From a virus, in IMG/VR virus record IMGVR_UViG_3300014720_000003, positions 32,001 to 96,000 of that record: a DNA stretch of 64,000 nucleotides; one strand, 5' to 3'. Of this stretch, positions 21,314 to 27,300 are shown piece after piece. The notes below the pieces were generated by a model. The model was not told where the DNA came from. It saw nothing but the letters and a program-made list of their open reading frames with translations, and searched no databases. A program made the position numbers and the translations under genes. Position 1 is the first letter of the stretch, and every line of letters begins with the position of its first letter.

Positions 21314-24300
21314 ATGGCTCAAGCTTTTAATCTAACAGCTCAGATCAATTTACAGGGGCCGTCAGCGGCTGCTATTAAGCCAATTGTGGCTGATATTAAA
21401 AGGCAGCTTGGTTCGGCTACTGTAGATGTTAAGATCAAAATACCACCCAAAGCAGCAGCATCCATAGATGTTGTTACTAAAAAATTGCAAGCAATGAATG
21501 GGGTGCTTTCAGAAGCACAACTTAATGCTAACAATCTTAGCTCAGCACTATCTTCATTATCTAGTAGTTTTCAAAATCTTAATTCTAATGCTAGTAAAAC
21601 TCAAAGTTCAGTAGCAAATACTGCTAGCAGTGTAAAAGCAACCTCTAACACTATTAAAGTTGCTAGCTCTAGAATGGAAGAGTTTGGTAAACAATCATCT
21701 TTAGCAGTAAAACGATTTGCTGCATTTAGTCTAGCTGCTGGACCAATATATGCACTTATTAATGCTGTTAATAGTGCGTTTAAAGCATTTATTAGTTTCG
21801 ATAAACAACTAGTAAAGCTTCAACAAGTTACTGGTCAGGGCGCTATCGGTATTAAAGATCTTGAAAAAACAATTACTAATTTATCTATCAATCTTGGTAT
21901 TAGTAGTGAGGGCTTGATCGAGGTCGCTAGTACTCTAGCTCAGGCAGGATTAACAGCTGATGACACAAGAATAGCCCTAGCTGCTCTTGCTAAAACAGAT
22001 TTGGCTCCTTCATTCGACGATATTACCGAAACCACAGAAGGCGCTATTGCTGCTATGAGACAGTTTGGTTTAGAGGCTAGTGATCTTGAGGCAGTATTGG
22101 GTAGTATTAATGCTGTTGCGGCTGCTTTTGCTGTGGAATCTAGAGATATTATTACTGCTATTCAGCGTACTGGTGGTGTTTTTGCTAGTGCTAGTAAAGG
22201 AGTTTCAGAAGGGGCGGATGCTCTTAATGAATTTATTGCTGTGTTTACCAGTGTTCGTGCTACTACTCGTGAAAGCGCTGAAACTATTGCTACTGGTTTG
22301 CGTACTATTTTTACTCGTATTCAACGAGGTAGTACTATTAAGCAACTCAAACAATTTGGTATAGAATTAACTGATTTAGAAGGTAAATTCGTTGGACCAT
22401 ACGAAGCTATTAAAAGATTAAGTGAAGGACTTAAAAGCTTAGATCCTAGAGATTTGAGATTTAGTCAAATAGTAGAAGAGCTTGGTGGTTTTCGACAGAT
22501 TGGTAAAGTTATTCCATTAATTCAGCAATTTGGAGAAGCTCAAAAAGCTTTGGGTGTTGCTCAAAGAGGTCAGGGTAGTTTAACAGAGGCTCAGATCAAA
22601 GCTCAACAAAGTTTAGCAAATCAATTAGCTAGAGTTAGAGAGCAATTTTTAGCTTTGATTAGAGATATTGGTCAAAGTAGCGTATTTCAAGGACTATTTA
22701 AAATAGTAACTTCATTGACTAGTGGTTTCATTAGTTTAGCTGGTGCATTCAAACCCATTCTACCAATTTTGGGTTTGATGGGCGTTGTTAAGGGTGCTAG
22801 TGCTTTGACCCAGTTTGCTAGTGGATTTTTTGGTGGTGTTAGTAAGGGTGGTGGCGCAAAACAAGTTGGTCAAAGCTATGGTGAAAGTATTAGCGGTGCT
22901 AAAGAAAAAGAAAGAACAGAAGCAACATCTAAAGCCGCTGATGCAATAAGATCAAATACAGATGCTATTAAAAGCTTAACTAGTGCTATAGAGAGTTTGG
23001 AATTCTCTATACTAGACATTTATACTGCTCCACCAACCACTAAAAATAGTGGAGGTAAAATATTGGCATTTGCTCGTGGTGGTGTGGTTCCTGGCCAGGG
23101 TAATAGAGATACCGTACCCGCTATGCTTCAACCAGGAGAATTTGTTATACGCAAAAAAGCAGTAGAAACTATTGGTGCCAATAGACTACATAAAATGAAT
23201 AAATACGCTAAAGGAGGACCAGTTAAATTAAAAGAATTAGCAAGAGAAGATAGTTCTATAGAATCAGGATATAATAATAAGATACAATCAAATGATCAAG
23301 TCAGTGCTTCTATCAATAGAAAACAATTTGATTTTGATGCTAATCAAACCTCACCCATTAACTGGAAAACTCTAGCTAAAAGAATTGAAGAAAGATATCA
23401 AGGTGGTGAAAGTTATTTTAAAGCTCAAGGACACGCATTTGAAGAAAGTATAGTTAATCTATTAGGTAGAGAAGCTAAAAGAACAGCTGATATAGCAAAT
23501 TATGGCGCTGACTATCCTATAGATATTATTAGTGGTAATAAAGTTGCAGAAGTAAAATTTACAAAAAAAATTCATGATGATAATACCTATTTAAGTAAAT
23601 TAGTTAGACATCATATTCAACAACAATCTTTAAGTAAATATCCATTTACATCAAAATTTGATCCGGATGTTGGTATTGGTTCTATAGATGTTTTTGAAAT
23701 GGCATCCAATGCTAAGGATCAATTTCAAAAATGGTATAATACAACATGGTCACAAAAGAAAAACATTGGTGGCTTAATTCAAAAATTTGCAGAGGGTTCT
23801 CCTGGTGGAATTAGGTTACCTAGTGGTAAAGGTCGTGGTAGAAAAGGTAAGCTAGGACGTAGAGATAGATTTATTTCTCCAACTGAAGGAGGGCTTCCAG
23901 GAATAGAAAAATATCTAGATTGGGCAAAACAAATATATGCTGAATATGATGCTGATCCATCTTTAGTTAAAGCATCATATATGGGTGTTAGCATGCCACC
24001 AGAAATAGCTTTAGCAGATTATTTATTAGCACAATATGCTTTAGAAACAGGTGGAGCAGGACTGAGGGTTGGCAAAGAGTTTGTTAGGGTTCCAGCAGAT
24101 AAAATTACCGACGAACTTAAAAAAGATTTGATTCCAGATCCAACAGATCCTACTCAAATGGGTTTTTATAAAGATAAAATTGCTAGATTTCTACTCAAAG
24201 AGAAAAAAACTAAGTCATCACAACAATCTACTACCAGAGGATTAAAAAAAACAGAAGGAGCACTAACATTTAGTGCTGCTGGATTACAAAGAGGTCCTAG

Positions 24301-27300
24301 GGCGCCAGCTGGACAAGCTGCCCTAAAATTAGCTGAATATGAGCAAGACCCAGAATATCGTAAAGAAATGGGCTTAGATGCTGCGAAAATACCATTTTTA
24401 CAGCAATTTGAAAAAGCAGCAAAAACTGAACAATTCCTAAGCCCTAAAGCACTTCTTGAGAAATTTCCACAAGCAAAATCTCAATTAGAACAACTACAAT
24501 CATCAATACAAACAGAACTATCCAGAACAACAGACGCAAAAATACAAAAAAGTTTAACTGATCAACTAAGAAAAGTTACAACGGCATTAAGTGATTTTGA
24601 TAATTATATTGGTGGAGCATTACCTAAAAATGCTGGTAGAGCTTCTCATTTTGCCTGGGCAATGAGACAAGCCGTCCCAGGCTCTGCTGAATTTGCCAAT
24701 GGAGGATTAGTACAAAAATTTGTGGACGGAGGAGAACCCGAGCCTATTAGCACACCGCGATCTATAACAGAAATTATTAAGCTTGTTCAAGAGTTGGGTA
24801 CATCTTCAAGAATCAAGTCTCTCATAGGTACTGGAAAAATAATTCAAGAAGCTAGTGCTGTGGGAGTCAGAGGTGTCCTACCCAAACGTATTCTAGATTT
24901 AGATTTTCTCAAATCTGATAAAGTAACACCATTTATACCAACAATTGATAAACTATTAGATCTAGCATTAATAGAAGATGCAAAAGTTAAGAGAGAGGAC
25001 GATTTCAGACTCTCTCCGGAAGAAATAGCATCAGCCAGACCAGTTGGTATAGTTGGATTTAGGTCAAATCTTAAAGATCTGATGCCGTATTATAGAAAAC
25101 GTAAAGGTAAAAATCCGATTAGGGTTTATACAGGAATTTTACAACCAACCGATTATGCTGATGTTGAGCAACTGTGGAGAGAATATTATGAATCACAAAT
25201 GAAAGCAGCAGGAAATATAGCTTCTAGAAGAGGACAATCAGCAATGTCTATTTCTGAAGTAGACCGTAAAACCTTTGGCATTGCTAATGCTCAAGGATAT
25301 GATGTTGAAATGATATTAGCAGCGCTTGGATCCACCGGAGGTAAACGATCATCACAAGATGCTATAGACTTTGCTTCTGGATTAAGCCCATTAGCTGCTG
25401 ATGTTTTTGGAATTCCTGCTGGAATACCCACTCAAGCTAAACTCACTGTTACTAGTGATAGTATAACAGATGCTATTGATGGTATTGTTAAAACTTTCTT
25501 TTTTGGTGGTAAAGTTAATCCTCTAGCTAAAAAATATGGATTAAGTCAAAAAGAATTCGAGCAAGTACAAAAGTTAGCTAGCGCAATGGGATTAGATCAA
25601 GCTGGACTAGAGCAACAAGTTCAAAGAGCCGCTGCTCGTAAACAAAAAGGTAAGGATATTAAATTTGGATTATTAGATACCCAAGCAGAATTAATGGCAT
25701 CAGATACCATACGAACACAAGAGGAGGCTGCTCTACAAGAATTCATGAAAGCTCAAGGATTTGCTGTGGGAGGAGCGGTAAAACTCTATCATGGTACAAC
25801 TACAGGAACAAATGATTCTATTCTTAAAAGTTTTCAAGAGCAGGGCGGCATGTCAGGTATTGCACAAGGCTATGGTCAAGGTGCTGGCCTATTTTTGTAC
25901 ACAGATAGAGACAGAGCAGTTAAACAAGCACAAATGAGAGTATCTGGAGGTGGATTCGGTACTGTTACTAGCGGAGACACCTCTGGTCGTCCAATGGTAG
26001 TTACTTTTTCAGAAATATTAGATCCAAAAAACTTTGATCTAGACTATGAATTAGAAAAGGGTTTAATTATAAAATGGTTAACTAGTAATTATGATCAGAT
26101 TAAGGATAAACTTAATCCCACCAAAGATTTAGGTGGTATAGTCGATATTATAACTGAAAATAGATCTCAAGGTATAATGTCATCTGGTATAGTTACTAAA
26201 ACCGCATCACAAGGACTCAAAGAAATATATGCCGGTTCCCCATCTAATATTACAGAAGGAGCTATTATTAGTCAGATAATCAGTAGGCTTCGAACCGCAG
26301 ACCCAGAATTAGTAGATGCTTTTGAAAGCAAATTATTTGAAAAGCCAATGGGTCTGGTATTAAAATATATTGGTGAGTCAGCTTTACGACCAATAAGTTT
26401 AGAGCCGTTTGCCAAAGGGGGCTCGGCAAAAGATACCGTACCAGCACTCCTAACCCCAGGTGAGTTTGTTATTAACAAACAAGCTGCTCAAAAAATTGGA
26501 TACTCTAAATTAAATAAGATGAATAAGGCGGATAAAATACAAGGATTTAATAAGGGTGGTGCTGTTGGTAATATTCGTAGATTTTTTGAAGGTGGAAAAG
26601 CAGAAAAAGATGTGGAAAGAGCGCAGGGAGAAGTAATAAAAGATGTTAGTCACGCTCTGGAAACTGTGTCTGAAATCATCTCATCACTACCAGCACATAT
26701 ACAGCAAGCTTTGAAGAATACTCAAATAGAAAGTTTAAGACCAGGACAAAGATTATCTTTACAAGGAGGAAGTGGTCCAGAATTTAGAGAAGGCCAGAGA
26801 GGAGTAGCTGTCACCTCAGAGGCTGGTAGTACTGCTATAGGACTAAAAATAGGGAAGGGAATATTGTCTTCTATCAAGGGTCTTTTTGGTATTAAAACAA
26901 AGGATGCTGCTACTACGGAAACTGTGGCTCATGAAACTGGACATTTAGCTGATGCCGCCGTTTCTAGTCAAGCCGGAATGAATACTTTTGCTAGTGAAAC
27001 CAAAGGTACATTTCAATTTGATGTTGTAGAAAAAGTTAAACCAGTAATGGAAAAAGCTTTTTTAAATGCTGGTTATAGCGCAGAATGGATAGCTAAATAT
27101 TTAGCTAGTAATAAAGAATTGTTTGCAGAGTTTTTTGCTAAAGCTAGTCCAGCAGTAAGAAATATTTTAACGTCCACTATTGATAGTGAACAAGGCATGA
27201 AAATGCTAGCAGAAGAGTTAGCAAGAACAGGATCAACATATGCTGGATTACAAGCATCAGATATTGTTCCACAAGTGGGTCCTGGAACACCAATACCACA

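Follow-up and report, generated by a model that had tools for sequence, protein, structure and literature searches.

Tape measure proteins (TMPs) of phages leave the tail first and build a channel across the host envelope (PMC12617516; PMC10770324). Some of them bring an enzyme along. In T5 (pb2), mycobacteriophage TM4 and enterococcal phages the TMP includes a cell-wall hydrolase that is used at entry (PMC12617516), while gp96 of Thermus phage P23-45, a TMP of 5,002 amino acids (aa), includes as a fused part a working virion RNA polymerase, whose proposed place of action is the TMP pore while the genome enters the cell (PMC10770324). Other phages deliver ADP-ribosyltransferases (ARTs) along with their DNA (PMC7824862; PMC7302621). 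The union of disparate effector-type domains in one virion-delivered polypeptide has been described for the polyvalent proteins, in which ARTs, nucleases of the restriction-endonuclease (REase) fold and zincin-like metallopeptidases ('MPTase') are recurrent parts, mosaicism is extensive, and release by a built-in metallopeptidase has been proposed (Iyer et al., 2017; PMC5512222). A comparable arrangement, with like kinds of domain, is proposed here for the TMP encoded at positions 21314-33163 (+ strand) of a window of 64,000 nucleotides (nt), which corresponds to bases 32001-96000 of the complete 138,480-bp IMG/VR virus record IMGVR_UViG_3300014720_000003; the record has direct terminal repeats and represents an uncultured phage.

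Searches of the main text of papers returned no description of TMPs with arrays of ART, nuclease and peptidase cassettes, or of the repeated module that joins them here. A mosaic signal in TMPs was reported by Smug et al. (2023), who stated that genuine cases could not be confirmed (PMC10684548). A sequence-only reading of the window had pictured the TMP as an effector polyprotein, with enzyme cassettes delimited by repeated aromatic-x-x-G-G motifs that serve both as cleavage sites and as recombination joints. The explanation considered most probable after the present analysis is that of a modular ('polyvalent') effector-carrying TMP with swappable cassettes. It would have a conserved N-terminal core of the TP901 type, a long ruler-like body at the C-terminus and, between the two, an array of globular, independently evolving cassettes: a PD-(D/E)xK-type nuclease candidate, two unassigned segments, a second nuclease-like unit, an ART fold, and a zincin resembling anthrax lethal factor (LF) and the Pro-Pro endopeptidases (PPEPs). 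A module of ~60 aa and short copies of its ends (aromatic-x-x-G-G, often GGx(I/V)QKFxxGG) would string these cassettes together, and the joints would act as islands of homology where related phages exchange, gain and lose cassettes. Sequence comparison supports both the swappable cassettes and the recombination joints. What makes the window informative is that two confidently predicted folds come together with statistics on the junctions and with recent exchanges among relatives that are nearly identical.

The gene (P0001; 21314..33163, +) is a single uninterrupted open reading frame (ORF) of 3,949 aa, and the view that its product is a TP901-type TMP is borne out by family searches. It matches Pfam PF10145 (PhageMin_Tail) over aa 185-390 (nt 21866-22483) at E 2.7e-24 (86.6 bits; cut-off 33.2), and six PHROG families, all annotated as 'tail length tape measure protein', with a best value of 8.4e-27. 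It is also the longest gene of the late structural block and contains hydrophobic and glycine-zipper stretches. The large terminase gene lies upstream (7717-9747), with unrecognisable structural genes between. The N-terminal core (aa 1-577; 21314..23044, +) holds the PhageMin_Tail region as well as a hydrophobic segment (aa 461-499). BLAST high-scoring segment pairs cover half or more of this core in 88 of 90 related proteins of 2,171-6,911 aa, which share parts of the span discussed here and have the same layout. The C-terminal body (aa 2061-3949; 27494..33163, +) shows glycine-zipper-like hydrophobic stretches at aa 2379-2401 and 3483-3518 and a weak match to DUF1269 (aa 2370-2404, E 0.0083); parts of it are common to 36 of the 90 relatives. 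The same TMP gene is found on an independent contig, L003 (8258-20662), at 98% identity over aa 1-3583. Because the record is metagenome-derived, the giant ORF might be suspected of being an artefact of assembly or annotation, or several genes joined through sequencing errors. This is extremely improbable: no stop interrupts the frame over 11,850 nt, the gene recurs on L003 at 98% identity, and the 90 relatives are of like layout, which together indicate that the ORF is real.

The interrupting span covers aa 578-1986 (nt 23045-27270). All of the motifs that had been listed for it from the letters alone were recovered in the translation of the + strand: FARGG (aa 586, nt 23069), YAKGG (aa 631, nt 23204), NIGGLIQKFAEGS (aa 817, nt 23762), FANGG and FVDGG (aa 1127 and 1136; nt 24692 and 24719), FFFGG (aa 1395, nt 25496), FAVGG (aa 1483, nt 25760), FAKGG (aa 1699, nt 26408), FNKGG (aa 1745, nt 26546) and FFEGG (aa 1757, nt 26582), together with two copies of DTVPA (aa 599 and 1707; nt 23108 and 26432). 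Of the 11 [FYW]xxGG motifs in the protein, nine fall within the span. In 5,000 shuffles of the span the count averaged 0.99 and peaked at 6; none of the shuffles reached nine. An aromatic residue stands at position -3 of 9 of the 22 GG sites inside the span, versus 2 of the 38 outside it. All but one of the 12 His residues and 8 of the 11 Trp residues of the protein also lie in the span, whose composition is that of a globular protein. DSSP applied to two models, one of the ART cassette and one of the module with the zincin, gives mixed alpha/beta domains and a coil-like module. When the protein is compared with 89 relatives, the ends of homology blocks cluster at aa 800-828, 1127-1130, 1378-1408, 1467-1481, 1674-1707 and 1979-2017, which agrees with the earlier suggestion that the motifs sit at domain edges; further breaks occur inside cassette C (945-970) and cassette D (1278-1327).

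Five of the nine FxxGG motifs belong to two copies of a longer module, FAxGG - (V)PG.G.. - DTVPA(M/L)LTPGEFVINKKA...IG...L..MNK - ... - (F/Y)NKGG.VG.IQRFF.GG, and the others resemble its tail. A hidden Markov model (HMM) of the module finds two full copies in the window, at aa 586-640 and 1699-1757. Copy 1 (aa 586-640; 23069..23233, +) reads FARGG .. DTVPAMLQPGEFVIRKKAVETIG..L.KMNK YAKGG, with an i-Evalue of 1.2e-22. Copy 2 (aa 1699-1760; 26408..26593, +) reads FAKGG .. DTVPALLTPGEFVINKQAAQKIG..L.KMNK .. FNKGG .. FFEGG, with an i-Evalue of 7.2e-34. Weak partial HMM matches to the tail end of the module at aa 578-593, 1125-1135 and 1476-1490 indicate that the 'free' FxxGG joints are short versions of that end. 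A longer form of the joint, GGx(I/V/L)(Q/K/R)xFxxG(G/S/D), occurs in 120 copies in 64 of the 90 relatives, 94 of them outside modules (one shuffle gave 0). In the window it is found at aa 819 and 1130, that is, in joint 1 (aa 817-829; 23762..23800, +; NIGGLIQKFAEGS), where block ends fall at aa 800-828, and in joint 2 (aa 1127-1140; 24692..24733, +; FANGGLVQKFVDGG), where they fall at aa 1127-1130. In an AlphaFold2 (AF2) model of the module and the zincin, model residues 1-81 (aa 1690-1770), which include the whole module, have a predicted local distance difference test score (pLDDT) below 50. A predicted complex of three module copies scored 0.01 against a mark of 0.42, and no inference is drawn from it.

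The two DTVPA copies had been thought to bracket most of the array as special elements. They are better described as two copies of a widespread TMP module. A strict pattern of the module finds 263 copies in 91 proteins, with an aromatic-xxGG motif at most 30 aa upstream of 171 copies and at most 70 aa downstream of 208. The HMM, built from 60 copies, detects between two and eight copies in each of the 90 giant relatives, and a scan of IMG/VR for the module yielded at least 596 stretches, of which at least 566 were confirmed. In a tblastn comparison of the span with 50,697 phage records, the module was the sole matching part (8 records, 3-8% of the query). Among cultured phages, copy 1 matched the TMP of Clavibacter phage CN1A and the Synechococcus phages S-SM2 and Bellamy. 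The CN1A TMP (1,436 aa) has one module near its C-terminus (aa 1334-1371). In S-SM2, a T4-like cyanomyophage, the single module occupies aa 342-403 of a 766-aa protein that adjoins the baseplate hub gp26. Phage lambda gpH (853 aa) also has one module, at aa 750-785, with FATGG at 733 and YATGG at 778, so that its aa 733-785 read FATGG .. GEFVFTKEATSRIG .. YATGG.

Cassette F (aa 1483-1698; 25760..26407, +) is predicted to adopt an ART core fold. Its AF2 model, made with 50 sequences, has a pLDDT of 89.3 and a predicted template modelling score of 0.85. VIA-align of this model against 48,161 chains gave 29 chains with Z of at least 5, and nearly all of the best 50 listed are ARTs. The best match is to a Tpt1-type chain, 9ld3_A (Z 8.3, root mean square deviation (rmsd) 3.3, 84 aligned residues). 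Other matches include an Rhs ART toxin (Z 7.0), PARP16 (7.0) and diphtheria toxin (6.1; 120 aligned), and the list also holds PARP13, PARP15, Arr, DarT and toxins of the pertussis and cholera types. Since the Z scores are only middling, the fold call rests on the fact that nearly every listed match belongs to one superfamily and on conserved residues. The family shares the motifs LYHG, GxGQGxGFY and DLDYE, and both His1493 (in LYHG) and Glu1579 (in DLDYE) are present in the window and conserved in the family. Together with position 1527, they presumably correspond to the H-Y-E active-site residues. The weak Foldseek list for the cassette F model was led by a chain of the cyanophage A4 pre-ejectosome and by the pertussis toxin S1 subunit. 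The former (PDB 9k3a_B) has a Foldseek E of 0.018 and a probability of 0.66, and aligns by VIA-align over 92 residues at Z 5.3; an ART-like fold may thus also be carried on podophage ejection proteins.

A HMMER search of 1.84 billion representatives recovered 140 relatives of cassette F at E <= 0.001, among them other giant TMPs and many standalone proteins of 220-300 aa. Relatives of F are found among P0106-P0219 and P0128; the standalone ones in the ten clusters examined are unnamed or hypothetical, and one stems from a Woesearchaeota metagenome-assembled genome. The family, mostly unnamed standalone proteins, is uncharacterised. One relative of 1,036 aa is labelled as a DTW-domain protein (YfiP), which, together with the Tpt1-type best match, hints that this ART-fold family may target RNA and not protein. 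Cassette F itself has no Pfam match at E <= 10. Among 50 members of the family, weak Pfam matches were seen to DUF3990 in four (best 0.023), to ART-PolyVal in two (0.058) and to PARP in one (0.055), none of them significant. In view of this lack of a significant curated-family match, F is filed as an ART-fold domain and not under a named ART family. An ADPrib_exo_Tox match listed beforehand for the relative P0026 was not reproduced at E <= 0.001 and is not used as evidence.

Cassette H (aa 1761-1990; 26594..27283, +) is predicted to be a zincin metallopeptidase closest to the LF/PPEP type. It contains HETGH at aa 1873-1877 (nt 26930-26944), and in cassette H the residues H113, E114, H117, D120, E175 and E179 are invariant in seven sequences of 46-53% identity. 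The HETGH motif lies on helix 179-197 of the model. The HExxH signature is accompanied by a downstream acidic ligand; the third zinc ligand is presumably one of E175 and E179. Over model residues 82-290 the pLDDT is mostly 72-94, with a low loop at 161-170. VIA-align matched the LF catalytic domain (Z 7.5, rmsd 3.9, 144 aligned), PPEP-2 (Z 6.8, 129 aligned, 21% identity) and PPEP-3 (Z 6.2), as well as M13 and M36 peptidases and thermolysin. As for F, the call is based on nearly all of the best 50 listed matches being zincins and on the conserved residues. No match placing H in family M34 was returned by Pfam, NCBIfam or PDB sequence searches, and none of 657 candidate standalone zincin relatives scored. 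The zincin is followed by a Pro/Gly/Ser-rich linker (aa 1991-2060; 27284..27493, +) with three PPP(L/V)PP units and a G+P content of 53%. A Pro-rich tract likewise adjoins the zincin in about 8 of 18 zincin-bearing relatives, as read by eye from the rows. Because the nearest structures of the zincin include Pro-Pro endopeptidases and a Pro-rich tract adjoins it, this tract is an alternative candidate cleavage site and could be a substrate in cis.

The remaining cassettes are less clearly defined. Cassette B (aa 641-819; 23234..23770, +) carries FE, PxD and Ex(K/R), invariant in eight of eight aligned sequences, and this PD-(D/E)xK signature makes it a candidate restriction-endonuclease-like nuclease. 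Its nearest ESM Atlas clusters are Tox-REase-7 and Tox-REase-3, at a score of 0.88 that lies below the 0.9 line and serves as a lead only. None of 39 candidate standalone relatives of B scored. Cassette C (aa 820-1126; 23771..24691, +) consists of two sub-blocks with a break near aa 945-970 and has no family match; 18 of the 90 relatives match parts of it, often one half only. In cassette D (aa 1137-1394; 24722..25495, +), the C-terminal part (aa ~1276-1394) is the commonest cassette type, belonging to a cluster present in 62 of the 90 proteins. It follows the pattern E..IDF..PT(D/E)x(K/T)R, and the Asp of IDF is invariant in an alignment of 15. This segment is only nuclease-like in sequence, and neither PDB, Pfam (with the alignment members) nor the ESM Atlas lent it support. 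Cassette E (aa 1395-1482; 25496..25759, +), a small segment that starts with FFFGG, occurs in five relatives, namely the identical fragment P0002 and four proteins in which it stands directly before the ART.

These results sort the domain guesses that had been made for the segments. The ART and the zincin are upheld by structural models, the first nuclease by its motif only, and the segment called an unknown domain stays without identity. That the segments fold as discrete domains is likewise supported for at least two of them, since the ART and the zincin are confidently modelled as enzyme-type domains.

As had been expected, cassette content differs between relatives. By segment-wise BLAST, between 5 and 23 of the 90 relatives (one of which, P0002, is an identical fragment of the window's protein) hold a given cassette: B is found in 8, C in 18, D in 23, E in 5, F in 15 and H in 20. 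The cassettes stand at widely different positions; start points of the ART range from aa 980 to 2480. In a FastTree built from the N-terminal core (89 rows), the ART requires 8 state changes for its 15 holders and the zincin 7 for 18 holders; the distributions of B, C and D cannot be told apart from those of shuffled labels. When the stretches between modules were divided at the motifs, 547 pieces in 275 single-linkage clusters resulted, and 29 of the clusters are present in three or more proteins. The ratio of nonsynonymous to synonymous polymorphism (pN/pS) per cassette between the window and the 98%-identical L003 was uninformative, with 0-5 differences per cassette.

The motifs coincide with the breakpoints of this exchange, as had been supposed when they were called recombination joints. 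All 15 embedded copies of the ART block begin with [FLY]xxGG, although their 40 upstream residues come from several unrelated contexts, and a module follows directly after the block in 13 of 15. None of 45 standalone members of the ART family has the motif, which therefore belongs to the TMP slot and not to the ART domain; the possibility that aromatic-xxGG is merely the N-terminus of the ART domain is ruled out by the same count. Similarly, ..RFFxGG precedes the zincin in 19 of 19 cases. In descriptive counts, a motif is at most 12 aa away from 18.9% of the homology-block ends that fall outside modules, versus 6.0% of random positions, and the peaks relative to the motif are sharp (starts at 0 to +4, ends at -10 to -1). 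Recent swaps are seen in eight protein-pair comparisons (12 proteins, several of the comparisons overlapping) in which flanks of 83-96% identity surround replaced segments, with breaks on motifs in at least four of the eight. For instance, P0003 and P0027 have 234 aa and 139 aa, respectively, after 'ASGG/AVGG' and up to 'GGLVQKFAAGG/GGLIKKLASGG'. P0012 differs from P0041 and P0039 by 171 aa versus 184 aa between '..AGGG|' and 'GGLVQKFLKGG', the right break of P0026/P0029 lies at FATGG, and in P0043/P0044 about 610 aa are replaced, ending at 'GGxIYASNG'.

As TMPs exit the tail ahead of the DNA and build a trans-envelope channel, the cassettes would most likely be delivered to the host. The tail thus probably brings ready-made enzymes into the cell, as judged from TMP ejection in other phages. 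In the proposed mechanism the cassettes would arrive at the host membrane or in the cytoplasm as infection begins. They would then act on nucleic acids, either the host's own or competing ones, and would modify host targets by NAD-dependent ADP-ribosylation. Cytoplasmic substrates, namely NAD and nucleic acids, are implied by the ART fold and the putative REase fold. The cassettes could work while tethered to the TMP, as has been proposed for the P23-45 virion RNA polymerase, or after proteolytic release, and their diversity may reflect an arms race with host defences or rival elements. If delivery occurs, long-tailed phages could send in pre-made effectors not only by way of ejection proteins packaged in the head but also through the tail, with a payload that could be re-sorted by recombination at a standard joint. 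Delivery would bear on how uncultured aquatic phages overcome host defences, and also on what TMP length measures, as about 1,400 of the 3,949 residues are not ruler-like.

Several observations weigh against a modular effector-carrying TMP. Foldseek found no match at E <= 0.001 for the model of cassette F or for that of cassette H (best E 4.5e-3 for H), and the best VIA-align scores of the two, Z 7.5-8.3, lie in a range that VIA-align calls middling. No cassette had a significant match in sequence searches of Pfam (eight segments, E <= 10), of NCBIfam, or of the PDB with phmmer for the whole span, nor did profile searches of the PDB with the ART, zincin and D alignments return one. Substitutions occur at two catalytic-type positions: the window has Phe1527 (L-F) where 14 of 14 embedded relatives and most standalone ones have Tyr (F-Y), and it shares with L061 a Gln (PTQAK in the window) in the PT(D/E)xK pattern of cassette D, where 13 of 15 sequences have D or E. 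The tree used to count state changes is a FastTree, and the block-end counts come from non-independent sequence pairs and are descriptive. In addition, about 1,400 folded residues on a multi-copy TMP would be hard to fit into the lumen of the tail tube.

Two other explanations compete with the modular effector-carrying TMP. The protein could be a true polyprotein. Cleavage at the aromatic-xxGG joints or next to them, either while the tail matures or once the protein has been ejected, would free each cassette as a separate effector, the cutter being the built-in zincin or another protease. Lambda gpH has a single copy of the motif-bearing module (aa 750-785, with FATGG at 733), and its glycine-rich C-proximal region is where it is cleaved to yield gpH* and the ~14-kDa gpHC (PMC12617516). 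A C-fragment of 14 kDa would start at ~aa 710-720, about 15-25 residues before FATGG, a coincidence with the module that is approximate only. The module is predicted to be unstructured (pLDDT < 50), as an accessible linker would be. A zincin is present in the same chain, and zincin-like peptidases have been put forward as the processing enzymes of polyvalent proteins (Iyer et al., 2017; PMC5512222). However, the zincin is found in 20 of the 90 relatives and modules in all 90. Its closest structures, LF and the Pro-Pro endopeptidases, do not suggest Gly-Gly specificity, the Pro-rich tract behind it is at least as plausible a substrate, and the motif is not docked into the active site in the AF2 model of module and zincin. 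Peptidase families C39, C48 and S78, candidates for a Gly-Gly or prohead protease, have no match in the genome at E <= 1, which is weak evidence in so divergent a phage (9 of 10 neighbours without a PHROG match). On balance, cleavage at the joints is judged rather unlikely. A bolder form of the idea holds that the giant TMPs are the phage counterpart of polymorphic toxin systems, with an unchanging injector in the tail and a rapidly reshuffled set of enzymes. The module of the TMPs would be both a recombination joint and a processing signal, the one at which gpH too is cut, and the tail would free enzymes (ART, nucleases, peptidase) ahead of the DNA. This stronger proposal is doubtful; if it is true, the question of the gpH cut becomes tied to a testable repeated motif.

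Alternatively, the modules and joints may be structural, a contact peptide for the tail-tip hub, the tail tube or assembly chaperones, with the cassettes as tolerated passengers or spacers and with breakpoints at the joints only because no other stretches are conserved. In lambda, gpH binds gpI through its C-terminal part, but the gpH residues resolved on gpI are 818-849, outside the module (PMC12617516). Ordinary TMPs have a single C-proximal module (aa 1334-1371 of 1,436 in CN1A, 750-785 of 853 in lambda), and in the T4-like cyanophage it sits in the protein adjoining baseplate hub gp26. Moreover, the module is more conserved than any cassette, and two cassettes of the window have substitutions at catalytic-type positions. 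Against a passive role of the cassettes, catalytic-type residues are retained in the ART, the zincin and B among relatives that share 30-55% identity, which argues for selection on activity. Standalone proteins of the ART family occur in many genomes, which suggests that the domain has a function of its own, and a pure spacer would not need 275 different fold-sized clusters. A purely structural role is accordingly thought quite improbable, and the modular effector-carrying TMP remains the preferred reading.

Some further features of the gene and its surroundings were observed. The 3,949-aa TMP contains no cysteine. Its last ~380 residues are only 80% identical to those of L003 and include an insertion, and pN/pS between the two is 0.52 in the C-terminal end versus 0.27 in the preceding body; the C-terminal, tip-proximal end of the TMP seems to evolve faster. 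Nine of the ten neighbouring large structural ORFs (9796-21278 and 33163-40840) lack a PHROG match at E <= 0.001, and eight of the ten scanned lack a Pfam match at E <= 0.01. By this measure of sequence similarity, the phage lineage is very divergent. The G+C content is 47-51% at window positions 1-4000 and 31-42% in the remainder. A 274-aa ORF at 4363-5187 (+) encodes a poly(ADP-ribose) glycohydrolase (PARG) with the microbial-type catalytic domain PF10021 (E 5.6e-15, 56.4 bits; cut-off 23.5). Given the ART-fold domain of the TMP, the genome thus encodes an ADP-ribose eraser as well as an ART fold.

Compared with known systems, the window TMP combines traits that are otherwise found apart. 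The scaffolds of polyvalent proteins in the work of Iyer and colleagues are reportedly head-packaged (MuF-type) proteins or proteins transferred by conjugation. In the window the TMP itself serves as the scaffold, and copies of a specific TMP module link the cassettes. Two or more disparate domains in one chain, as expected of a polyvalent protein, are present in the form of the ART fold, the zincin fold and the REase signature. In the text of the polyvalent protein paper, 'tape measure', 'tape-measure' and 'TMP' have 0 occurrences (PMC5512222).

Among TMPs, P23-45 gp96 has one N-terminal enzyme and no array, repeated joint or reported cassette exchange, unlike the window TMP (PMC10770324); conversely, no RNA polymerase was found in the window TMP. 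The hydrolases of other TMPs attack the peptidoglycan of the envelope (PMC12617516), whereas the predicted ART fold and the putative REase fold of the window imply substrates in the cytoplasm. Lambda gpH shares the same module, present once in the C-proximal glycine-rich region where the protein is cut (PMC12617516). With 853 aa and one module, it has no enzyme cassette, and the paper states that no enzymatic activity is associated with it (PMC12617516). The gpH module is within the part of gpHC not resolved by cryogenic electron microscopy (residues ~690-817), near the gpH*/gpHC cut (PMC12617516). If the cassettes of the window are delivered, this would also bear on the unexplained cleavage of gpH, whose single module copy adjoins the cut region.

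T4 Alt and the MuF-VIP2 ART fusions of Microbacterium phages belong to the R-S-E clade, unlike the ART-fold family of the window with its H-Y-E-type pattern. Both are virion-carried ARTs delivered with the DNA (T4 Alt, PMC7824862; MuF-VIP2, PMC7302621). They are packaged in the head, whereas the ART-fold domain described here is part of a tail protein.

A different parallel comes from bacteria. In polymorphic toxin systems such as CdiA and Rhs (Zhang et al., 2012), variable toxin or enzyme cassettes are joined by recombination to an invariant delivery scaffold at a short conserved motif. Those toxins are secreted by bacteria and have a single C-terminal tip with a cognate immunity gene, whereas the window TMP has several internal cassettes within a structural protein of a phage. 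Overall, the closest concept to this TMP is the polyvalent protein, the closest precedent among TMPs is P23-45 gp96, and the closest evolutionary analogy is the junction of polymorphic toxins.

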